From NCBI GenBank assembly GCA_019752595.1, contig JAIELV010000001.1, positions 553,209 to 617,208 on the forward strand: DNA of 64,000 nt. The letters are read 5' to 3'. Below, piece by piece: positions 10,302 to 54,360 of the stretch (position 1 is the first letter of the stretch; the number at the start of each line of letters is the position of its first letter). The position numbers were made by a program, and so were the translations under genes. The notes below the pieces were generated by a model. The model saw only the letters and a program-made list of their open reading frames with translations, was not told the DNA's origin and did not search any database. This DNA is from Patescibacteria group bacterium (GTDB lineage Bacteria; Patescibacteriota; Minisyncoccia; Phycocordibacterales; Phycocordibacteraceae).

Positions 10302-10315
10302 AAAATTTTTTGTAG

Positions 10316-10389
10316 TCCGCCCTCTTGGACTCGAACCAAGGACCCCAGAGGTATAAGCTCTGTGCTCTAACCAACTGAGCTAAGGGCGG
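10316..10389 (-). tRNA. tRNA with anticodon TAT (tRNA-Ile, UAU), 74 nt, CCA not encoded
   Basis: CCGCCCT acceptor, GCTC-AGTTGGTTA-GAGC D-arm, CAGAG-CTTATAC-CTCTG anticodon arm, CTTGG-TTCGAGT-CCAAG T-arm, discriminator A. Anticodon read directly from the reverse complement. Confidence 0.8.
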
Positions 10390-13868: not shown

Positions 13869-14236
13869 GGGGATGATTTGATTCGACAGTGGGTCACGCT
13901 ATATACATGCGAAACGGTGAATGTTGGAGAACACCTAAAATCTCGAACAACAAACGTGTAAGAACGTCTGTACCGTCCTACTCCCTCGCGGAGATGGATC
14001 TCGCTTACGCTAACGCCTAAGCGGCGCCAAACTTTCAACGCCTTATAGAAAGTTCTTGGTGTCATAACATAAGGCTCTAAGAAATCGATTGCTCACCGAT
14101 TTCTCAAACTTACGAGCTCGACTGTGCGCGCTTTCGTTCGTTTCTTAACGCACCGTCTAAAACCCAAAAGCGAACTAGGTTCCGTAGATTGTACTAGCAA
14201 CACTCATTGGACGGGGTTTCAACACCCCCATCTCCA
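13869..14236 (+). ncRNA. ssrA: tmRNA (ssrA), standard one-piece, ~368 nt
   Basis: 5' GGGGATGATTTGATTCGACAGTGGG and 3' TTGGACGGGGTTTCAACACCCCCATCTCCA match the tRNA-like domain consensus. Acceptor GGGGATG pairs with CATCTCC. Sits directly downstream of smpB. A possible tag frame ends ...AEMDLAYANA-TAA at 14018..14020, but this is uncertain. Confidence 0.8.
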
Positions 14237-14240
14237 CAGA

Positions 14241-15170: not shown

Positions 15171-15254
15171 AGAAAATCTTATGAGCATAGCGATGTAGAT
15201 TTTCTTAGACCCCGCCCTCTGAGCACCTGAACTTCGAGAGCAAAGAGGGCGGGG
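15171..15254. repeat. Palindromic element copy A: TTAGAAAATCTTA...AGATTTTCTTAGACCCCGCCCTCT-(23 nt)-AGAGGGCGGGG
   Basis: 11-bp GC-rich stem CCCCGCCCTCT/AGAGGGCGGGG (15210..15220 and 15244..15254), preceded by the inverted repeat AGAAAATCT/AGATTTTCT. Near-identical flank and stem at 34771..34867. Confidence 0.5.
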
Positions 15255-15297
15255 TGGAAGATTTTTTAATTCATTTCATTCATAACAAAATCTAACC

Positions 15298-19871: not shown

Positions 19872-22793
19872 TTACGTGCCCTGCTCTTTTTGCGCCTCGC
19901 GCATCTGGTTGTACTTTATGTTGATTTCTTCTTCGACGGCATCGCGTGCGCGCCCAAACCGCTGATACGACATCTGCTTCAGTGCTTCCATGTTCATCGG
20001 ATCACCATTTTGGAATGCAATCGTTTCTATAGAAAATGGTGAAACTGGCTTGCCGCCAGCCAAGAGCTTCACGTACGCGTGAAAGTTATCGAGCTTAAAG
20101 AAATCGGTCGTTTCAAACACTGGCTGATACTGCTTTGCTAAAAATTCCGCATCTTCTGTACCGACACGGAACGTTGCCATCGTACCCACGTTACCGAATA
20201 CTGATTCTTTAATTTCTTTCGACAGCTGAGAGATGTACTGGTGCGCAATAGTGAGCGAAAGTCTGAATTTTCTGGCTTCAGAAAGAATTGTGGCAATGGT
20301 GTTTGTGGTTACGTTCTGGAACTCGTCGATATAGAGGTAGAAGTTCGGCGGATTGGTGTGCAGATAATCCGTACGCGCAAGCGCGGTCATCATGATTTTA
20401 CCGACAATCACAAGCCCGAGGAGGTTCGCGTTCAAATCTCCCAAACGGCCTTTCGAAAGGTTCACCAAAAGGATTTTCTTGTTATCCATGATGTCCTTGA
20501 AATTGAAAGCGCTCCTCTGCTGACCGACAATCGGGCGCATGATTTCGTTCGCGATAAAGATGTCGAATTTTGACGTAATGTATGGCACTACGTTTCGAAG
20601 GTCTCCCTCCCCACGTACATTTTCCGCAATATCCTCCCAGAAGTGATTCACTACAGAGTTTCTTGAACGGGAAAGTTTCAGTGCGCGGAAATTGTCGTCC
20701 GCCAAAACACGTGAAATATCCATAAGTGTAGAGCCCGTTTCGGGATCTTCAAGCACCAAAAGCGTGGCGTTTCGGAAGTATTGTTCGAATATCGGACCGA
20801 ATGCCTCAGGCACATCGCCGTACAGCTTCTTGAATATCTTGAACATCTCGTCCACCACGAATGTTTTCTGCTCAGGAAAACGGGGATCATACTCCAGCAT
20901 GTTCAAGCCCATCGGGCGCGCGGTGTATGCGGGATCAAAATAAATCACATCGTCGTAACGTTCCTTCGGAATGCGCGAAAGAATTTCCTGCACGTCAACA
21001 CCGTGCGGGTCTATAAAACACACGCCAGCCCCGCGCTCGATGTCCTGCATAATCATGTGTTTCAGGAAGTTCGTCTTACCCGTACCAGTCTGTCCGATGG
21101 TGTACATGTGACGGAGGCGATCTTCGTCGCCGAAGTGCACTAATGTTTCGATGTTCGAATAACGGTTTCTACCAATCGTAATACCGACTTGCGGCAATCC
21201 TGGTGGCGCAGGTGCAAGTTTTGCACTCGAAGTTTTTGCTTCGCGTGATGCGGTTCCGCCTGCAATGGTCCAGTGAAACATTGTCGAAAGCTCTGAAAGG
21301 TTCATCGGCATCAATGTGCTTCCCTCCACCATCGGTGTTGGTACTTTTTTCGTAAACTCCCAAATCAACTGCTCAATAACGGATTCGTGCGCATCACGGT
21401 CAAACAAACGGAAAATAAATTCGCGCATCAGTTTTCGTTTCGCACTCTTTCCATGCGGCGAATGAAACTTCAAACGATTTCCCTTTGCGTCTTCGTACTG
21501 ACCGAATGTTCCTTCAATTTCCGCAATAATTGCTTTTGCACGCTCTTTAGTACGCGCAGACGCCACAACGCGAATGTTGACGCCGACAATCACGCTCTTT
21601 ATTTTTTTATTGACCGCTTCAACCGTCAGCGTGTCCACGTGCTTATCATGCCCGCCACCACCACCTCCGCCATGCCCACCACCTGAAGAAGACTTCATCA
21701 TGTCTTTGGCCTCTTTTGCCGCCCCTACGAGAAACTGACGCCACAGGGGTTCTGGCTGTTCATACATGTGGTCAAGGAAAATGTACCCATGGCTTTTTTT
21801 CCCTTCATTCAAATCGTGAAGCACTTTGAGCATGCGTTTTGTGTGGTAATCTCCTGCGCCAGCAACAGAAATTTGTATCGATGCACCTTCGCCCTCCTGT
21901 GCGATTTTTGAAAGAGACGCGAGCGTGATGTTTAACGGGTCGTACGTAAAATCTTCAATAGTCTTTAGTGGTAGTGGTGCGGGACGTTTGTATTCTGCGT
22001 AAGCGATTTCAGTTGCGCCAAATTGGTTAAACGGATTGTAGTCATCTTTCTTTTCCGCCACGCGCGCGCGAGGGAAGATAGCAAAAATCTGCTTTTCAAA
22101 AAAGTCTCGTTTTTTGCGCGGAACCGCGAGGTAAAAAATCGCAAATTCGTTTGTATGCGACACCGCGATCTCCATGGTGAAGTGCTCCTTATGAAGCACC
22201 TTCCTGCGTTGTAAATCTTTGAGGAAATACACATCAGGAATAGAAACGAGCGGGATAACCGCCTGATAGAACTGCTCCATCTGCGTGATGATGTCTTTCA
22301 AACTCCCTCCTGCTTTTCCTGCGCCAGACTCAGGCACTGCAACCTCCAAAAGCACAAAATCAAGCGCTCTTGCGATTGGGTCGTGTGGGTCAAGGCCTGG
22401 GATAGCGTGCCCTTCTTTTTTGTACTGCACCAACAATCGGTGGAAATCGTCCTCGAGGTGCGGGTTGTCTATTTCTTCAAGCGCCTTCAGGGCCGCGGAG
22501 AAACCTTTCTCGCGAAGAATGCCAAGGAGGTGCTCCATGTCTTTGTCGTTCGCGTCAGGCGTGAGTTCCAAAATGATTCCCTTATCGCCTGGTTGGTGAT
22601 TTTGAGGCGCCGTAGAATCATCTGAAGCAGGCACCACAGGCGCTTCAACAGGCGGTCGAGGTTCATTACGGTACCCGTATCCACCCCCACCAGAACGGGC
22701 ATTTTCACGCATCTTTGCCATCTGCCTCTCAGGAGAAAGTTTTGCGTTTGCAGTCGAATCAGGACCTTTTAATTGCCCAAATGCCATACGCAT
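19872..22793 (-). CDS. Large FtsK/HerA-superfamily ATPase of the VirD4/TraD/TrwB coupling-protein type (973 aa). Low-complexity Pro-rich N-terminus and internal Gly/His-rich tract GGGHGGGGGGGHDKH.
   Basis: Walker A TIGQTGTGKTNF. CFIDPHG and YFDP blocks. Walker B-like YLYIDEFQ. C-terminal SLTIAHQY...L typical of the TraD/TraG C-terminal region. No N-terminal TM helices. Confidence 0.6.
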   Translation of the reverse strand: MRMAFGQLKGPDSTANAKLSPERQMAKMRENARSGGGGYGYRNEPRPPVEAPVVPASDDSTAPQNHQPGDKGIILELTPDANDKDMEHLLGILREKGFSAALKALEEIDNPHLEDDFHRLLVQYKKEGHAIPGLDPHDPIARALDFVLLEVAVPESGAGKAGGSLKDIITQMEQFYQAVIPLVSIPDVYFLKDLQRRKVLHKEHFTMEIAVSHTNEFAIFYLAVPRKKRDFFEKQIFAIFPRARVAEKKDDYNPFNQFGATEIAYAEYKRPAPLPLKTIEDFTYDPLNITLASLSKIAQEGEGASIQISVAGAGDYHTKRMLKVLHDLNEGKKSHGYIFLDHMYEQPEPLWRQFLVGAAKEAKDMMKSSSGGGHGGGGGGGHDKHVDTLTVEAVNKKIKSVIVGVNIRVVASARTKERAKAIIAEIEGTFGQYEDAKGNRLKFHSPHGKSAKRKLMREFIFRLFDRDAHESVIEQLIWEFTKKVPTPMVEGSTLMPMNLSELSTMFHWTIAGGTASREAKTSSAKLAPAPPGLPQVGITIGRNRYSNIETLVHFGDEDRLRHMYTIGQTGTGKTNFLKHMIMQDIERGAGVCFIDPHGVDVQEILSRIPKERYDDVIYFDPAYTARPMGLNMLEYDPRFPEQKTFVVDEMFKIFKKLYGDVPEAFGPIFEQYFRNATLLVLEDPETGSTLMDISRVLADDNFRALKLSRSRNSVVNHFWEDIAENVRGEGDLRNVVPYITSKFDIFIANEIMRPIVGQQRSAFNFKDIMDNKKILLVNLSKGRLGDLNANLLGLVIVGKIMMTALARTDYLHTNPPNFYLYIDEFQNVTTNTIATILSEARKFRLSLTIAHQYISQLSKEIKESVFGNVGTMATFRVGTEDAEFLAKQYQPVFETTDFFKLDNFHAYVKLLAGGKPVSPFSIETIAFQNGDPMNMEALKQMSYQRFGRARDAVEEEINIKYNQMREAQKEQGT

Positions 22794-23831: not shown

Positions 23832-23887
23832 ATATATATTCTATCAGGGAGACGAAAGTACCACCCTCACTCTTACATTCCCCCAGT

Positions 23888-23908
23888 GTGCTATACTAAG
23901 TATAGCAC
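23888..23908. repeat. REP unit copy GTGCTATACTAAGTATAGCAC (+ATTTTCTG), solitary
   Basis: 21-bp palindrome identical, apart from the central base, to the units flanking the RAYT gene at 37733.. and 38483.. and to the copy at 47922... Confidence 0.6.
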
Positions 23909-23921
23909 ATTTTCTGTAAAA

Positions 23922-24470
23922 CTACGTTGCTTTCGTTTTGAGGTAAAAATCCAAAGCGTGACGAATTCCTTGTGAAAAATCTGAAGGTTGTTTCTTTATC
24001 CAATCCTGCAAATCTGACATCGAAATCCATCTCACGTCTGAAACCTCGCCAGGGTCAAATTGTATTGGGCCGTCGTAGCGCCCTTCGTACACCATGTTAA
24101 ATCGCTTTCGTGTGGGTGTTTCTTCGGTAATTTCTGAGTAATGTTTCCCGATCTCTTTGAGGGTTACATTTTCTATACCAACCTCTTCTTTCAGTTCACG
24201 TACTGCTGCTTCTAAATATTCTTCGCCTTCATCAACATGTCCTGCAGCACTATCATCCCACCGATTCGGGAAAGAGGAGACATGCGAAGAGCGTTTTTGA
24301 ATCAACATCTCCCCTTTCGAGTTAAAAATGAATACTCGAGAGATTCTGTGGATAATTCCTTTCTCAACCGCATCAGGGCGTGAGCCTGCGCCTATAACAT
24401 TGTCGTCAACATCAACATATACAATCTTCTTCTCCATATTTGCAGTATACGGTTTAAGAACCGCAGACAA
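23922..24470 (-). CDS. NUDIX hydrolase
   Basis: Nudix box GHVDEGEEYLEAAVRELKEEVGI. Confidence 0.75.
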   Translation of the reverse strand: MSAVLKPYTANMEKKIVYVDVDDNVIGAGSRPDAVEKGIIHRISRVFIFNSKGEMLIQKRSSHVSSFPNRWDDSAAGHVDEGEEYLEAAVRELKEEVGIENVTLKEIGKHYSEITEETPTRKRFNMVYEGRYDGPIQFDPGEVSDVRWISMSDLQDWIKKQPSDFSQGIRHALDFYLKTKAT

Positions 24471-25242
24471 AAGTGAGGGTGTGTTGTTTGCTCTTCAAGA
24501 GGTTAACTTCAGTTTTTACTCCCAAAAGCGAAGCCTCGTCTAACTGAATGTCAGACACACGATTTGCAACGGGATATGAGCCTGAGAATCCAATTGCTGC
24601 TATCTCCAATATTCCAGGGCGTGTGCCGTCAATGGTTACTGGAACAGGGGGTATGGCCGCAACAGCAGATTCACCGTTTTGTATGGAAACGTCAGGAAGC
24701 GAAACACCAGGGAATTTGATATCAAAAGAAGCTGGCGATTCTATAGTGCTACACCCTCTATTTTCAATTACCACATCGACCGCTGTTACGTGAAGTGCGC
24801 CTACTACCCCCACAGCAACAATGGTGATAATTCCCATGGGTCCTTTCACGGTGCGGAAAATTCCTTCCCAAGGAGTTTTCGCACTTCCACTTGCGTTAGT
24901 TTTTTCGGCTACATCAAATTCCTGCTCAACCCGTGCGATTTCTTTTTTTAGTTGAGTGAAAAACGCAAAGAGGCCGAGGACTGCTTTCTTCCTCTTCTTT
25001 TCTTCTTCCGTTCCTTCGGGCATTGCTTCGGCGGAAAGACTCAGGACTTCCCCATTCAAAACTTTCTCTACTTTCCCGAGTTCTGATTCTGCGCGCAGTA
25101 CATGCGACTCTAGCTCAGGATGCATTCCTTTCAGAATGATTCGAATAGAATTCAGTTTTTCCTTGGGCGTTGAAGAATCAGCAAAAACGGCCTGCGCCGC
25201 CGTCAACCGTTTCTTCACGTCCACATAATCTATCTGCTTCAC
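24454..25242 (-). CDS. Hypothetical protein, 262 aa, with an internal hydrophobic segment
   Basis: Long ORF overlapping the NUDIX start by 17 nt. No family recognised. Confidence 0.45.
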   Translation of the reverse strand: MKQIDYVDVKKRLTAAQAVFADSSTPKEKLNSIRIILKGMHPELESHVLRAESELGKVEKVLNGEVLSLSAEAMPEGTEEEKKRKKAVLGLFAFFTQLKKEIARVEQEFDVAEKTNASGSAKTPWEGIFRTVKGPMGIITIVAVGVVGALHVTAVDVVIENRGCSTIESPASFDIKFPGVSLPDVSIQNGESAVAAIPPVPVTIDGTRPGILEIAAIGFSGSYPVANRVSDIQLDEASLLGVKTEVNLLKSKQHTLTFVCGS

Positions 25243-25286: not shown

Positions 25287-25583
25287 TTAAAGTCTCTCGG
25301 TGTCAAGCATGCGATAGCGACTTTCAATCTGTGTTCTCAGACCCGCACGTTCCGCAGGTGTGGCGCCTATGATATCCAAATAGAGTTCAGCAGTTCTGCG
25401 TCCGTCTCCAGGTTCTTCGTCAACAACGACTTTTACAGGCGCGACACGCCCTTCTCTATATCTTTTGGCACTCGCCTCACGCTCTCGAAACTGCGCTCGT
25501 GCGAAATCGTCCAAATGTGCCTGCGACCAAACCATACCGTTCATTACACACCCATAATACGCCTCTGTCAAACTCACTCTCAA
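25287..25583 (-). CDS. Hypothetical protein, 98 aa
   Basis: ORF ending 4 nt inside the suhB start. No family recognised. Confidence 0.35.
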   Translation of the reverse strand: MRVSLTEAYYGCVMNGMVWSQAHLDDFARAQFREREASAKRYREGRVAPVKVVVDEEPGDGRRTAELYLDIIGATPAERAGLRTQIESRYRMLDTERL

Positions 25584-26377: not shown

Positions 26378-26419
26378 CAGTATATCACTATGGTAACATG
26401 TTACCATAGTGATATACTG
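26378..26419. promoter_or_regulatory. 42-bp perfect palindrome CAGTATATCACTATGGTAACATGTTACCATAGTGATATACTG
   Basis: Exact self-complementarity verified. Lies between the map 3' end and the suhB 5' end on the minus strand. Confidence 0.5.
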
Positions 26420-32662: not shown

Positions 32663-33778
32663 TTAATTTGAATCTCTAGCTCCAGGGAAATCGGCAAGAC
32701 TTGGATCCATCCCCACTTTATTAAGAAGTGCAATCAATACATCACGTTGATGCTGATGGAAACGATCATCTGCTTCTCTTAATGCCTTATCTTTTTCCTT
32801 AATTGCCACCTCCAAGTCATCGTTCCTTGCTTTGAGGGCCTTAATGGAATCCTCCATATCAGTAATACGACGCTTCTCGGCCTCTTCCAGAGCAAGTCTG
32901 CCTGCTTCCTCAGTAAGTGCTGCGCGTGCTTTTTCCCCACCGAGCTTAAGCAATGCTAAATCGCGTTCTGGTCCAGATGCAGGAAGCTCGGCATTCGCAA
33001 GAAGAGCAGCTACAGGATCGAGCTCAAGCATTACAGGCATTTCAAACTGCTGTTCCTCTTCAATGCCTTGGGCCTCAAACTTCCACACGTTACCTTCGCG
33101 GTGGAGGTTAAGTCGCAAACCTACTCTACTTAGCTGTTCATCGAGTGCTTCGAAACTGCCAAGTTCAACGATATCCAAAAATTGCTCTCCTGATTCAGCT
33201 AGTTTCGCTTTTTCCCTCTCGAGACCTAACTTCTTTCTATTTTCCCATGCTCCTTGCCTTACCCAACCGAAAGGAGAGCGCGCTTTCTTTTCAAACTTGG
33301 CATCCTGAGCAACCATCTCATCGTATTCTGCGTTTGCAGAAGAAAGAATTTCGCTTTTTACCTTGCCGTCAACTTCATCTATGTCACGAATTTCTTTTTT
33401 CTTCCCAGTCTGGCGCTCCTGGGCCTCTGCCATATACACACCATCCGAAATACCAACAAGACCAGTTTTTTCGTCCGCGGCAAGGAAGCTGAGATCCACC
33501 CTTCCTTTTTCGTCAGGCACGAGTTCCTGCAAATCTGCATCGCCCCCCCCTGCTTCAGCTGCGTCGATCTTCGCTTTAAGCTTTTCTGCAGCCGAACGCA
33601 ACGCAACATGTATTTCGAAAACACGATCGACTTTCGCAAGTCCTTCAGCTTTTTTTCTTACAACGTCTGGGTTTGCGGCGCGCACATTCTGCGCTCTTCC
33701 ATTCAAACGCGGTCGCTCACCACGAATAGCTCGGGAAAACACGACATCACCTGGACCGACTCCATTACCTTCAGCCAT
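32663..33778 (-). CDS. Hypothetical coiled-coil protein (371 aa, Glu/Lys/Ala-rich) inserted between rplE and rpsN
   Basis: Long ORF of heptad-like charged low-complexity sequence. Its own AT-rich upstream region (33779..33870) and flanking terminators indicate an independent transcription unit. Confidence 0.5.
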   Translation of the reverse strand: MAEGNGVGPGDVVFSRAIRGERPRLNGRAQNVRAANPDVVRKKAEGLAKVDRVFEIHVALRSAAEKLKAKIDAAEAGGGDADLQELVPDEKGRVDLSFLAADEKTGLVGISDGVYMAEAQERQTGKKKEIRDIDEVDGKVKSEILSSANAEYDEMVAQDAKFEKKARSPFGWVRQGAWENRKKLGLEREKAKLAESGEQFLDIVELGSFEALDEQLSRVGLRLNLHREGNVWKFEAQGIEEEQQFEMPVMLELDPVAALLANAELPASGPERDLALLKLGGEKARAALTEEAGRLALEEAEKRRITDMEDSIKALKARNDDLEVAIKEKDKALREADDRFHQHQRDVLIALLNKVGMDPSLADFPGARDSN

Positions 33779-34770: not shown

Positions 34771-34867
34771 TTAGAAAATCTTAGACCCCGCCCTCTAAGC
34801 TTATCCGAGAAACGGGTGGGGACATTTTCTATTCCGATGTGTTTCATTGTTTGCATAGAGGGCGGGG
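34771..34867. repeat. Palindromic element copy B: TTAGAAAATCTTAGACCCCGCCCTCT-(59 nt)-AGAGGGCGGGG. It fills an unusually long rplN-rplX spacer.
   Basis: Same 26-nt 5' flank and 11-bp GC-rich stem as copy A at 15171..15254. rplN and rplX are normally adjacent; here they are 160 nt apart. Confidence 0.5.
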
Positions 34868-34900
34868 TGATGAAAAATATATTCGCTTCGCTCATTATTT

Positions 34901-37304: not shown

Positions 37305-37652
37305 CTATTTCTTCTTTGCATCGGCTGCGGGTGCTTTTGCAGCTTGTGCGGCTGCTATTTCAGCCTCTTTCTTCTTCTGTTCAAGCTCTTTCTGCATCTT
37401 TCCTCCGTGACGAGTGAATTTAGTTGACGGTGAAAATTCACCGAGGCGGTGACCAACCATTTCTTCAGTAACAAGGACATCAATGAAATCCTTTCCGTTG
37501 TGAACCGCAAACGTAAAACCAACCATTTCAGGTGAAATTTCAGACGAACGCGCCCATGTTTTTATGGGAGCGGTTGCGCTTGGTTTCTTTCCGTCAATTT
37601 TCTTCAAAAGTTTGAAGTAGACGTACGGACCTTTTTTGAGTGATCGTGCCAT
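37305..37652 (-). CDS. rpsS: 30S ribosomal protein S19, with a Lys/Ala/Glu-rich C-terminal extension (start at [11 protein letters not shown])
   Basis: [19 protein letters not shown]...[17 protein letters not shown], uS19. Confidence 0.9.
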
Positions 37653-37731
37653 TGTTTTTATTTCAGAAAAAGAAAACGCCTTTCGGCTCGCTTGAAGATA
37701 CACCTTCTCGCCTCACCCGTCAACCTCAAAA

Positions 37732-38507
37732 AGTGCTACACTTAGTATAGCACATTCCTGAGGAATGTGCTATACTAAGTGTTGAACATGATTAAAAAAT
37801 CACGACATGGAGTTGCCCCAGGCGAGTATTATCATATTTTTAACCGCGGAAGTAATCGTAGCGCTATCTTTACCGACAAAGCAGAGCGCCAGCGATTTCT
37901 TTTCAACATCCTGTACCTGCAATCCCCCGAATCGTTCAGGAACGTAAATCGTATTTCGGGAAATTATACCCCTGACGAAGGATTCCCTGTGTCCGCTGAA
38001 GCGACGGAAGCGATACTGAAGAATCGCTACGTAGAACTAGTGTCATTCTGTCTCATGCCGAACCACTTCCACCTTATGGTCAAAGAGGTAGAAGACGGCG
38101 GAATTGCGAAGTATATGCACCGTGTGGCGGTTGGGTATGCAAAGTATTTCGGTGAAAAACATGAACATTCAGGGCATGTGTTCCAAGGCTCATATAAAGC
38201 CGTCCCTGTGACTGACAATCGCCAGCTTCTTTACCTTTCGGCCTATATACACAAAAATCCACACGAACTTGCTGACTGGAAAGGGCGCGAGGCTGAATAT
38301 CCGTGGTCATCGCTCCAAGACTTCACTGTCGCGAACCGTTGGGGAGGATTGATTGTGCCTGACATCATTACAGGGCAATTCGAACAAACAAAAAACAGCA
38401 ATTACGCTGATTTTGTGAAAAGCTCAACCGCGAAACTTCTTAAAGAAGAACTTGCTGACCTCAATCTCCCGTAAAACAAAAAGTGCTATACTTAGTATAG
38501 CACTTTT
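37732..38507 (+). mobile_element. REP-RAYT-REP unit: an IS200-like Y1 (HUH) transposase gene flanked by inverted REP palindromes, inserted antisense between rpsS and rplB
   Basis: 5' flank: GTGCTACACTTAGTATAGCAC plus a nested 41-bp perfect palindrome ACTTAGTATAGCACATTCCTGAGGAATGTGCTATACTAAGT (37740..37780). 3' flank: AAAAGTGCTATACTTAGTATAGCACTTTT (38479..38507). The transposase ORF lies between them. Confidence 0.7.
37788..38474 (+). CDS. REP-associated tyrosine transposase (RAYT; IS200/IS605 TnpA-like Y1 HUH enzyme, E. coli YafM-type)
   Basis: N-terminal GEYYHIFNRGSNRSAIF block. HUH motif in LMPNHFHLMV. HVFQGSYKAV, and catalytic-tyrosine motif SAYIHKNPHE. Opposite strand to the surrounding r-protein genes. 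Confidence 0.75.
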   Translation: MIKKSRHGVAPGEYYHIFNRGSNRSAIFTDKAERQRFLFNILYLQSPESFRNVNRISGNYTPDEGFPVSAEATEAILKNRYVELVSFCLMPNHFHLMVKEVEDGGIAKYMHRVAVGYAKYFGEKHEHSGHVFQGSYKAVPVTDNRQLLYLSAYIHKNPHELADWKGREAEYPWSSLQDFTVANRWGGLIVPDIITGQFEQTKNSNYADFVKSSTAKLLKEELADLNLP

Positions 38508-38520
38508 GGATTTGAGAAAA

Positions 38521-38548
38521 CAAAAACAGCCCCTGCGGGCTGTTTTTG
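38521..38548. terminator. Bidirectional terminator (CAGCCC-CTGC-GGGCTG with A-run 5' and T-run 3')
   Basis: Serves the + strand RAYT gene, and the minus-strand rplB whose stop is at 38554. Confidence 0.6.
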
Positions 38549-38553
38549 TTTCG

Positions 38554-39411
38554 TTATGCGCCCTTTCGTTTCTTGCCGACTTTGCGACGAGAAACAATGA
38601 ACGGATTCGAGTATTTCTTCGGTGTGCGCGACTTCTGACCCTTGCCTGTCGGCTTGCCCCACATGCTCTTTGCACGGCGCAAACCTCGACCCTGACGTCC
38701 CTCTCCTCCTCCGTGTGGGTGGTCTACTGGGTTCATTGCAGTACCGCGAACGGTTGGGCGGATACCCATGCGGCGTGAGCGGCCTGCTTTACCAAGTTCA
38801 ACCAAGTGATGCGACGGATTTGAAACTTCTCCAATTGATGCCCATGCAGTATCAACGACTTTACGAATTTCAGTAGAAGGAAGTTTCAACTGTGCGTAGC
38901 CAGCGTCCAATGCCACGAGCTCCGCGTAATTTCCAGCTGAGCGTCCAAACTTTGCTCCACCGTTTGCGTGAATTTCAATATTGTAGATGAACGTACCGAC
39001 AGGAATATTTCTGAGTGGCAAGCGGTTACCAGGAGTGATTGGTGCGGTTTCTGACGAAATAACCGTGTCATCAACTTTCAAAGACTGAGGGGCGAGGATG
39101 TAGCGACGTTCACCGTCTTTGTAGACAACGCGCGCGATAAAGCCCGAGCGGAAAGGGTCGTACTCAATGTGCTCTACGCGACCTGGAATATTTTTCTTAT
39201 CAAAAATGAAATCCACGATGCGCACGCGTTTCTTGTGTCCGCCTCCTTGGTGACGAGTGGTAATGCGACCCGCAGAGTTTCGTCCTGCACGGTTCTTCTT
39301 ACCCTTCGTCAAAGATTTGAGCGGGGTATCCGTCGTGAGGTAGTCACGGTAACGAACAACGCTCATGTGGCGTGTGCTTTTTGTTCTTGCTTTGTAGTTT
39401 CTAATAGACAT
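38554..39411 (-). CDS. rplB: 50S ribosomal protein L2
   Basis: uL2 core including GRNSAGRITTRHQGGGHKKRVRIVDF and C-terminal HPHGGGEGR. Confidence 0.95.
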   Translation of the reverse strand: MSIRNYKARTKSTRHMSVVRYRDYLTTDTPLKSLTKGKKNRAGRNSAGRITTRHQGGGHKKRVRIVDFIFDKKNIPGRVEHIEYDPFRSGFIARVVYKDGERRYILAPQSLKVDDTVISSETAPITPGNRLPLRNIPVGTFIYNIEIHANGGAKFGRSAGNYAELVALDAGYAQLKLPSTEIRKVVDTAWASIGEVSNPSHHLVELGKAGRSRRMGIRPTVRGTAMNPVDHPHGGGEGRQGRGLRRAKSMWGKPTGKGQKSRTPKKYSNPFIVSRRKVGKKRKGA

Positions 39412-47823: not shown

Positions 47824-47921
47824 TTGTCTACGAAAAACTGCCACAAAGGCAGTGCGCGTACTATACAGAATCGCTATTTAAAAAGCAAGGATAAGAGTCA
47901 GAGAATGCCGAAAACCTCGCT

Positions 47922-47942
47922 GTGCTATACTTAGTATAGCAC
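47922..47942. repeat. REP unit copy GTGCTATACTTAGTATAGCAC (+ATTCTGGGGG), solitary, upstream of rpsL
   Basis: Identical 21-bp palindrome and ATTCTG tail as the RAYT-flanking copies. Confidence 0.6.
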
Positions 47943-47952
47943 ATTCTGGGGG

Positions 47953-51818: not shown

Positions 51819-52245
51819 TCATGAGAGAAAAATAGCTACTGATGCGGGAGGGCGCCCGCTATCCCTTTTTGAGTTATTGATTGCAAACGGTTTCAGACTT
51901 GCCGTTAAAGAGCGAGAACAGAGGGCGCGAGAAAACAACGAACCTGAACCGCCGAGAGGAGGCGCAACAGGAATGTGGTCTTAATAAGCTAATGTATTGA
52001 AAGAATTATGGTTATAGAACTCGGCCCTGACAATGCGTATTTAAGAAGACAAGAAGCTCTAAAACGAGAAAAGCCGATTAAAGAAGAGGCGAAAATCCCC
52101 GTGCCGACGGAGGACCAGAAGCATTGGCTAGCAAGTGGTCGTGGCGTAGTGAGCGAGACAGATATTTTCTCTTAAGACGGCGGCACTGGAAAAGAGGTTT
52201 GCATAACAGGCAAGCGAATTTTACTTTTTACAAAAGTATTGTGTA

Positions 52246-52722
52246 GTGCTATACTCCCCCGCAATGAGCGCGGAAGGTGCACCAGCAGGAGGAGAAGTAG
52301 CGAATGACAATAAAAAATTGCCAGGGCCAGTTTGGTTTATTTCCGAAGTGCTAAAACCGATTCCTGTATTTGTGCCAATTGTCGGTGGTCTTGCGGTGAA
52401 GGGTGAAGAGGCTGGTCACAGTGACGACCACGGCGGCGGCCACGGTGATGAACACGGAGGAGGACATGGCGACGACCATGGCGGAGGTCATGGAGACGCG
52501 CACGGCGGAGATCATGGTGGTGGTCACGGAGATGCACATGGTGGTGGACACGGAGAAGCACATGGCGGTGAAGCGCATGGTGACGGCCATGGCGGTGAAC
52601 ACGGAGGTGGACACGGAACTGAAGCCGCGCACGGAGCTGAAGCAGCCCATGACGCTGATCCGCATGCCCCAGCAAATGATCACGCCCCAGCGCCTGCAGC
52701 GGCACACCGCACGGCGGCGTAA
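52246..52722 (+). CDS. His/Gly-rich repeat protein (about nine tandem HGGGHGD(E/D/A)-type heptads), putative metal-binding
   Basis: 21-nt tandem nucleotide repeats encode HGGGHGDEHGGGHGDDHGGGHGDAHGGDHGGGHGDAHGGGHGEAHGG... The start codon is uncertain. Confidence 0.55.
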   Translation: MLYSPAMSAEGAPAGGEVANDNKKLPGPVWFISEVLKPIPVFVPIVGGLAVKGEEAGHSDDHGGGHGDEHGGGHGDDHGGGHGDAHGGDHGGGHGDAHGGGHGEAHGGEAHGDGHGGEHGGGHGTEAAHGAEAAHDADPHAPANDHAPAPAAAHRTAA

Positions 52723-54326: not shown

Positions 54327-54360
54327 ATGTCAACGTGTTACCATGGTAACACGTTGACAT
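54327..54360. promoter_or_regulatory. 34-bp perfect palindrome ATGTCAACGTGTTACCATGGTAACACGTTGACAT, adjacent to a TATAAT-like box
   Basis: Exact self-complementarity. Located in the 5' region of comEC and downstream of rnhA. Its core is a permutation of the palindrome at 26378. Confidence 0.5.

Follow-up and report, generated by a model that had tools for sequence, protein, structure and literature searches.

A probable REPtron-type unit, a Y1/HUH endonuclease gene bracketed by its own hairpin repeat, in the S10 operon of a Patescibacteria lineage

In a 64,000-nucleotide stretch from a Patescibacteria group bacterium (assembly GCA_019752595.1, contig JAIELV010000001.1, positions 553,209 to 617,208; hereafter the window, numbered from its first letter), a plus-strand gene for a Y1/HUH tyrosine endonuclease stands in a long minus-strand run of ribosomal genes, with rplB on one side and rpsS on the other, and carries a palindromic repeat at either end. 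What kind of element is this, and how did it come to lie inside the S10 operon? The original prediction, made from the sequence, read it as a YafM-like REP-associated tyrosine transposase (RAYT) between repetitive extragenic palindromic (REP) sequences, inserted into the operon. Our analysis indicates that the locus is probably a REPtron-type unit, in which one vertically inherited and constrained Y1/HUH endonuclease gene is bracketed by a cognate 23-bp hairpin repeat of the form TGT-N7-loop-N7-ACA, and to which a few further repeat copies in intergenic spacers also belong. The gene and its neighbours are as follows.

37788 to 38474, plus strand: Y1/HUH tyrosine endonuclease gene (open reading frame (ORF) list, Pfam Y1_Tnp, alignment, AlphaFold2 (AF2) model with Foldseek, and ratio of nonsynonymous to synonymous substitution rates, dN/dS)
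38554 to 39411, minus strand: rplB, operon neighbour, convergent with the Y1 gene
37305 to 37652, minus strand: rpsS, operon neighbour, divergent from the Y1 gene

The ORF encodes 228 aa from its ATG (a GTG start at 37779 would yield 231 aa). All four motifs that had been quoted for the product are present: GEYYHIFNRG at residue 12, LMPNHFHLMV at 89, HVFQGSYK at 130, and SAYIHKNPHE at 151. They include the HUH pair (H93-F-H95) and the tyrosine Y153 in Y153-I-H-K-N-P158, and the tail contains the motif YPWSSLQD. The Pfam hidden Markov model Y1_Tnp (PF01797) matched residues 71-157 with 46.5 bits (cut-off 23, E 4.8e-12). In an alignment of 17 homologs with 52-94% identity, H93, H95, Y153, and P158 were invariant and N157 was at least 90% conserved; the long C-terminal tail was strongly conserved as well (YPWSSLQD, NRWGG, SNYADFV). 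A sequence search of the PDB with the single protein returned nothing relevant, and a search with the family profile returned ISDra2 TnpA at E 0.04 only. The AF2 model had a mean pLDDT (predicted local distance difference test score) of 70.6, with core residues 14-160 at about 80-90. When this model was compared to the PDB by Foldseek, the 24 best matches were all TnpA proteins of IS608, ISDra2, or IS200, or the E. coli RAYT 4er8, with probability 1.00 and target TM-scores of 0.48-0.64. The highest query TM-score among them (0.48) belonged to 4er8. Identity to proteins of known structure is about 14-15%.

Repeat finding defined a unit of 23-24 nt, TGTGCTATAC-TWA-GTATAGCACA(T). The 21-mer within it, GTGCTATACTWAGTATAGCAC, occurs exactly at 23888, 38483, and 47922, with one mismatch at 37733 and as a partial copy at 37767, where dinucleotide shuffles gave an expectation of 0.00. 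The following repeats, none of them assigned to a strand, are present in the window.

37733 to 37753: upstream repeat unit 1, GTGCTACACTTAGTATAGCAC, one mismatch to the consensus (21-mer search, repeat finding)
37738 to 37782: upstream inverted doublet, a 45-bp perfect palindrome, 22+1+22 (palindrome scan, single-stranded DNA (ssDNA) folding)
37767 to 37787: upstream repeat unit 2, partial copy with three minus-strand mismatches (21-mer search, repeat finding)
38479 to 38507: downstream repeat, a 29-bp perfect palindrome with core unit 38483-38503 (palindrome scan, 21-mer search)
23887 to 23909: solitary repeat, intergenic, flanked by a NUDIX gene and a 284-aa gene (21-mer search, repeat finding)
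47921 to 47943: solitary repeat in the spacer between a peptidase-M50 gene and rpsL (21-mer search, repeat finding)

The description of a gene flanked by palindromic units, with solitary copies elsewhere in the window, was thereby confirmed, as was the 29-bp downstream palindrome; the upstream palindrome, given earlier as 41 bp (37740..37780), is 45 bp long. The upstream doublet ends 5 nt before the ATG of the Y1 gene, and the downstream palindrome begins 4 nt past its stop codon. Unit 1 has an internal C/A mismatch (GTGCTACAC vs. GTATAGCAC) and so forms an imperfect hairpin when alone, while the distal arm of unit 2 has degenerated into the start region of the Y1 gene. Folded as ssDNA, the doublet reached -22.8 kcal/mol (z -9.6), the downstream repeat -11.7 kcal/mol (z -6.8), and single units -8 to -12 kcal/mol, with z values of all hairpins between -4.9 and -9.6 relative to shuffles. 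The repeats have perfect 10-bp stems, loops of 1-3 nt, and no bulges, and no Rfam family was found over the Y1 cassette. The heptamer ATTYCTG, said to follow the unit on both flanks, was found 3' of four of the five copies in the window; the copy on the downstream flank has TTTTGG instead. In additional copies taken from metagenomes, nothing beyond the unit recurs except A-T pairs by which the palindrome is lengthened.

The evidence that ties the repeat to the gene comes from relatives of the Y1 gene, whose loci are numbered here with an L. Their palindromes lie at the same two places, about 5-56 nt before the start codon and about 0-20 nt past the stop codon, and the palindrome sequence is specific to the species: GTGCTATAC..GTATAGCAC in the window and L003, GTGCAACCTCC|GGAGGTTGCAC in L006, L008, and L009, and TGTTAAACAC-CGA-GTGTTTAACA in L017 and L022. 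L011 likewise has a matching palindrome on both flanks, unlike that of the window. Between the window and L003 the palindrome is identical despite saturated synonymous sites. With a perfect stem of at least 8 bp and at least 12 nt common to both flanks as criteria, the two flanks matched in 43 of 81 Y1 genes vs. 4 of 643 control genes of the same loci (Fisher p 6e-42, odds ratio 181). Thirty-two units could be aligned ungapped to TGTnCAACAC-N3-GTGTTGnACA, and compensatory changes were seen in 10 of 10 stem pairs (82 cells), with slid controls falling to 30-43% paired; the hairpins had been pre-selected as perfect, which makes the percentage paired circular and speaks against relying on it, but does not affect the compensatory variation. 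Matching flank palindromes that co-vary with the species show that the repeat belongs to the Y1 gene. The relatives do have the ORF at the rplB-rpsS junction, and they have it with palindromes of their own, so the prospect that they might carry it without palindromic flanks, which was named at the outset as grounds for rejection, was not borne out.

These counts also decide on the simplest alternative, namely that ordinary intergenic terminators happen to stand beside a degenerate transposase gene. Perfect hairpins are indeed common in spacers, one being present in about 19% of control gene flanks. Against this stand the 21-mer found four times where 0.00 is expected, the roughly 180-fold enrichment of matching flank palindromes at Y1 genes, and a Y1 gene that is intact and under strong purifying selection. 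We consider coincidence effectively refuted.

How old is the association? Identity of the homologs falls off gradually, from 94% to below 55%, and the best Y1 match in a scan of genome contigs was 62% identical. A family profile collected 645 clusters (at 50% identity) with E <=1e-30 and 13,167 with E <=1e-10. Such a system had been called unexpected in a genome resembling those of the Candidate Phyla Radiation (CPR), which does not agree with a family of thousands of members whose named representatives are nearly all Patescibacteria (Paceibacteria, Kaiserbacteria, Zambryskibacteria, and others). The position between rplB and rpsS is occupied by the Y1 gene in the window, in L003 and L004 (94% identity), L005 (70%), and L006, L008, and L009 (61-62%), and also in L010-L012, L014-L016, L018, and L055 (51-61%). 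In a neighbour-joining tree of 83 family members, the 14 sampled genes from this position (51-94% identity) formed one clade, and Y1 divergence co-varied with rplB divergence (rho 0.44). The Y1 genes of the window and L003 share 82% DNA identity, with dS about 1.9 and dN/dS 0.025, and the gene is under strong purifying selection. Its GC content, overall and at third codon positions (GC3), equals that of the adjoining genes. The cassette came to the rplB-rpsS junction a single time, in an ancestor shared by a Patescibacteria clade, and has been passed on vertically at that site since. The word "inserted" in the original prediction implied a recent event; a position ancestral to the clade, neighbour-like GC, and an operon rebuilt around the cassette do not fit it. 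The single clade, the low dN/dS, and a conserved rpsS promoter that abuts the palindrome (see below) mark an old resident.

Rare movements have nevertheless left traces. Within the clade the Y1 gene is antisense to the operon in 10 loci and on the operon strand in L006, L008, L009, and L011, where a large surface-protein gene also follows rplB. Only the stretch enclosed by the palindromes has flipped, its surroundings staying constant, and the inversion breakpoints are thereby located in the repeats. In a sister clade (L017, L020, L024, L025, L028, L030, L032, L039, and L050) one conserved neighbourhood has two slots, and the cassette is found in one or the other. By eye these were rpsU (S21)|hisS-like or pth|rpsA (S1), again beside translation genes. 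On the Y1 tree, genes from the two slots intermingle, a pattern suggestive of repeated relocation over short distances; the existence of two alternative slots indicates that the cassette moves, if rarely.

Such changes of slot and orientation would also be produced by an active IS200-like insertion sequence (IS), an autonomous element of ~0.77 kb in which the palindromes are end hairpins, the solitary palindromes are footprints or miniature derivatives, and the rplB-rpsS spacer is the target. The compact cassette, with one ORF between two hairpins, matches IS200 in size and organization, the catalytic fold is that of the IS608, ISDra2, and IS200 TnpA proteins, and hairpin-recognising chemistry may be expected from the fold match. 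We nevertheless find an active IS unlikely. The tyrosine motif is Y---NP (class 2) and not the Y---Q of IS200/IS605, no tnpB was found among the genes near the cassette, and one symmetric palindrome forms both ends of the cassette, in place of a left end that differs from the right. The 64-kb window contains one Y1 gene and no second, and each locus has one close copy, the second Y1 matches in a few relative loci being only 31-40% identical to the query. Plasmids and phages yielded no close copies, only distant Y1 relatives of <=34% identity. The position is monophyletic, Y1 and rplB have diverged together, and synonymous sites are saturated between genes at the same site, all of which is expected of vertical descent and not of a mobile IS.

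Second Y1 genes were seen as an observation of their own: L045, L017, L056, L062, and L078 each have a second, divergent Y1 paralog (31-40% identity) within 10 kb. Several gene/repeat pairs can coexist per genome in RAYT systems, and these loci fit that pattern.

The long residence of the cassette is also visible in the operon, where two further features were identified.

38518 to 38551, no strand assigned: GC-rich hairpin with A and T runs around it (palindrome scan, RNA folding)
37695 to 37723, minus strand: promoter-like rpsS element TTGACG-17-TATCTT, adjoining the repeat (promoter scan, comparison of 14 loci)

The hairpin folds as RNA at -25.4 kcal/mol on the plus strand and -24.3 kcal/mol on the minus strand (z about -5), and equivalent hairpins stand at the corresponding place in L003, L005, and L055. 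We read it as a predicted intrinsic terminator that works in both directions, placed where rplB and the Y1 gene converge. On the other side, the element TTGAC[GA]-17/18-TAGGAT/TAGTAT/TATCTT was found within a few bases of the palindrome, in the direction of rpsS, in 14 of 14 loci of the clade and with either orientation of the Y1 gene. The operon now consists of two predicted units, one from rpsJ to rplB that ends at the terminator, and one from rpsS onward with its own promoter. As for the Y1 gene itself, TATACT lies 11 nt before its ATG, and the upstream doublet carries TGCTATACT, an extended -10-like element, on both strands. Judged from these signals, the Y1 promoter probably coincides in part with the upstream repeat or adjoins it, the mRNA would be near-leaderless, and protein bound to the repeat could autoregulate the gene.

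The regions equivalent to 37653-37723 on the minus strand were compared in L003, L005, L006, L008-L012, and L055, and the rpsS promoter was conserved. Most of these relatives have in addition a short GC hairpin followed by a T run in the rpsS leader (GCGCGCACGGCGCGTTTTT in L012), which could be an attenuator; the leader hairpin in the window is weak (z -0.17).

These transcription signals raise another alternative, that the palindromes serve the host chiefly as regulatory elements in DNA or RNA, such as terminators, insulators, promoters, or operators, and that the Y1 protein is a domesticated hairpin or operator binder that has ceased to move DNA and acts, for example, on its own gene or on the split operon as a regulator. 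On the minus (ribosomal-gene) strand, T runs follow both Y1-flanking palindromes and give them a terminator-like score. The unit has the extended -10 consensus on both strands, and the upstream repeat adjoins the probable Y1 promoter and the rpsS promoter. Solitary copies lie just upstream of rpsL and other genes, copy number is low, and a gene kept under purifying selection in so minimal a genome would be expected to serve the host. However, the cognate palindromes of most other species contain no -10-like sequence, the actual rpsL and rpsS promoters are separate conserved elements, and the solitary copies are without T runs. The complete HUH and tyrosine set is invariant in the family, which would be unexpected for a protein that only binds, and repeats at unrelated sites in related organisms imply movement. 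We regard a mainly regulatory role of the palindromes as unlikely. Such a role may be compatible with a REPtron, given that the upstream repeat borders on the start of the Y1 gene as well as on the rpsS promoter.

Two narrower versions were considered and rejected. A general function of the palindrome as a bidirectional extended -10 promoter fails on the species without a -10 and on the separate rpsL and rpsS promoters, although a lineage-specific side effect is possible. A function as an ordinary terminator fails on the solitary copies, since the T runs are confined to the flanking copies (minus strand).

The solitary repeats provide the evidence for dispersal. The copy at 47921-47943 is located about 40 nt upstream of the conserved, separate rpsL promoter, and the orthologous copy upstream of rpsL in L092 differs by one compensatory C>T/G>A stem pair. 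The exact 21-mer was recovered on five metagenome contigs, four of them from one groundwater assembly, at sites that are unrelated to those of the window and all intergenic; one copy fills the 24-nt gap that separates two convergent genes. The copy at 23887-23909 marks the edge of a two-gene segment that is missing from relatives L093-L095. Repeats at unrelated sites of related organisms point to movement of the repeats. Their density is about one solitary copy per 30-70 kb (two per 64 kb in the window). From this low density and the 831 kb of the source contig, a few tens of copies at most are expected.

The segment at 23922-25242 consists of a 262-aa gene of unknown function and the NUDIX gene, and lies between an inositol-monophosphatase gene and the 284-aa gene; in L093-L095, which are without it, these two outer genes are 18 nt apart. 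A weak Y1-like tblastn match near its far edge, at 25434-25535 (38% over 34 aa, E 0.012), was taken as chance, as a minus-strand ORF covers the site.

To which known system does this unit come closest? Subclass 2.1 of TnpAY1 (Quentin et al. 2018, PMC6006769) corresponds to Group 1 of the RAYTs in Bertels et al. 2017 (PMC5581495), and the TIRYTs of Di Nocera et al. fall within it. The subclass is characterized by NH[YF]H, FQ in place of WQ, Y[IV]HxNP, and a tail with SS, at a median length of 238 (PMC6006769, Table 1). The Y1 protein, at 228 aa, has the full set (NHFH, FQ, YIHKNP, and WSS in YPWSSLQD). Two plasmid-borne relatives, from Legionella and Acetoanaerobium, align over almost the whole length with 26-27% identity; the Legionella adelaidensis "transposase" (WP_131739603.1) covers query residues 12-216 with 27% identity (E 1e-17). 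By motifs and alignment, we assign the protein to class-2 TnpAY1 of the subclass-2.1 type, with subclass 2.1/TIRYT proteins as its closest relatives.

The differences from this subclass are equally clear. The Legionella and Acetoanaerobium homologs have an extra C-terminal domain and, in L096 and L097, terminal inverted repeats (TIRs) of 25-26 nt of the TIRYT type. The Y1 protein is without the C-terminal helix-turn-helix (HTH)/DnaA_C-like domain and ends about 60 aa before the Legionella homolog; no Pfam match to a distal HTH (Bac_DnaA_C, HTH_23, HTH_28) was obtained at E up to 1. It has an extra ~30 aa between the first strand and the HUH strand. Published flanks of subclass 2.1 and TIRYT genes have either no REPs or 25-26-nt TIRs with the core GGGG[AT][CG]A[CG], whereas those in the window are self-complementary 23-bp hairpins, also found as solitary copies, without this core. 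Finally, the family of the window is essentially confined to Patescibacteria, a group that the published survey does not mention.

The other comparison is with E. coli TnpA-REP (YafM; 4er8) and its REPs and bacterial interspersed mosaic elements (BIMEs), from which the name REPtron is taken over here. Common to both are the Y1/HUH fold, the class-2 Y---NP motif, a low-copy gene bracketed by hairpin repeats that are also found in intergenic spacers, vertical inheritance, and housekeeping-like constraint. Identity is only about 14%, however, and the repeats of the window have a TGT/ACA foot, not GTAG, and perfect stems without a bulge. Tens of copies per genome are estimated vs. hundreds in E. 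coli, and the cassette has a fixed position inside a ribosomal protein operon. The call of a YafM-like RAYT holds for a class-2 Y1/HUH enzyme but is otherwise too narrow, and the claimed canonical REP/RAYT signature holds for the bracketing repeats and the solitary intergenic copies and not for the sparse dispersal. The unit is neither a canonical RAYT system (model score, WQ/GTAG features, copy number) nor a standard subclass 2.1/TIRYT element (no HTH, hairpins in place of TIRs). We found no literature on RAYT or REP in Patescibacteria or at the rplB-rpsS junction.

Several results weigh against a REPtron-type unit and keep our assignment at the level of probable. Quentin et al. (PMC6006769) reported no REPs for subclass 2.1. 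The NCBIfam RAYT equivalog NF047646 scored the Y1 protein at 36.8 bits, below its cut-off of 80, and F132-Q133 (in HVFQG) replaces W94/Q95 of the E. coli protein. While 25-30 of 32 species share the foot TGT...ACA with the window, the guide tetranucleotide GT[AG]G is missing. The C-terminal third of the AF2 model is of low confidence, and binding, cleavage, and mobilisation of the repeat by this protein would follow from homology at an identity as low as that noted above for known structures. With respect to dispersal, no repeat copies were found in 19-21 kb of relatives L093-L095, and the family flanks contained about 15 solitary copies in 1.1 Mb (about one per 70 kb), so that proliferation of the repeat may be marginal or extinct.

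If the protein acts as its structural relatives do, the mechanism would not be a new one. By analogy with IS608/ISDra2 TnpA and E. coli TnpA-REP, it would bind the hairpin when this is extruded on ssDNA, for example on the lagging-strand template. The DNA would be cut beside the hairpin foot through the HUH-bound metal (H93/H95) and Tyr153, and the strands would then be rejoined. Cutting and rejoining could maintain the repeats and occasionally copy them to new sites, and over evolutionary time could result in inversion or relocation of the whole cassette.

The role of RAYT-like domesticated transposases and of REP sequences is still an open question, and the present case bears on it with a large family branch in the smallest known bacterial genomes, strong purifying selection, and a handful of hairpins. 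Strong constraint with so few cognate hairpins argues for a host-level function independent of massive repeat amplification. One may go further and propose a phylum-wide, vertically inherited "minimal REPtron" with mainly a host function and not proliferation, which in one clade became a fixed part of the S10 operon, sets the terminator/promoter boundary that separates rplB from rpsS, and might link the activity of Y1 with the expression of ribosomal genes. Processing of ssDNA hairpins or an invertible insulating switch would be candidate functions. We put this forward tentatively, as a proposal with a small chance of being right; if true, it would offer the simplest natural system for learning what domesticated RAYT-like proteins do. 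Apart from that proposal, hairpin repeats are now tied to the "REP-less" subclass 2.1/TIRYT branch, which extends hairpin-associated Y1 systems to the CPR. The most conserved bacterial operon can evidently be split stably by such a cassette, its terminator and promoter being rebuilt and inversion taking place at the repeats. The family should be convenient for biochemical and comparative work, its proteins being small and its target sites few.

One further sequence had been listed as a member of the repeat family, a half-unit at 52245..52255.

52246 to 52255, plus strand: "half-unit" GTGCTATACT (one extra 9/10-mer vs. 0.17 expected in shuffles)

This excess over chance is not significant, and GTGCTATACT is not demonstrably a family member. 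It is probably the extended -10 promoter of a His/Gly-rich ORF, 9 nt before the ATG. The ORF (52265-52722, plus strand) is mostly a 12-nt periodic repeat with a His/Gly/Asp-rich product of HGGGHGD-like units, and TGCTATACT at this distance from the start codon suggests a leaderless mRNA.

Other palindromic sequences were seen in the window. A second repeat family at 15196-15269 and 34771-34881 has TCTTAGACCCCGCCCTCTRAGC and GAGGGCGGGGTG as an inverted repeat and no Rfam match, and one of its copies falls within the spc operon, in a spacer of unusual length between rplN and rplX. Two perfect spacer palindromes, at 26378-26419 (42 bp) and 54327-54360 (34 bp), have a common GGTAACA/TGTTACC core; the outer arms of the latter (ATGTCAACGTG) resemble the TGTnCAAC foot of the Y1-associated repeats of other species.

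The spc operon has another non-ribosomal interruption, a 371-aa gene between rplE and rpsN (32663-33778, minus strand). Its homologs are 333 aa long in L003 and L093, and L095 has three together with a small ORF; no Pfam match was obtained for any of these homologs. At 19872-22793 (minus strand) a 973-aa protein is encoded whose domains resemble type IV secretion coupling proteins (TraG/VirD4/TrwB); it is conserved in place in L093 and L095. Among the RNA genes are a tRNA-Ile with the anticodon TAT (10315-10389, minus strand), an uncommon means of AUA decoding in bacteria, and a full-length tmRNA (72.8 bits) at 13869-14239 on the plus strand.

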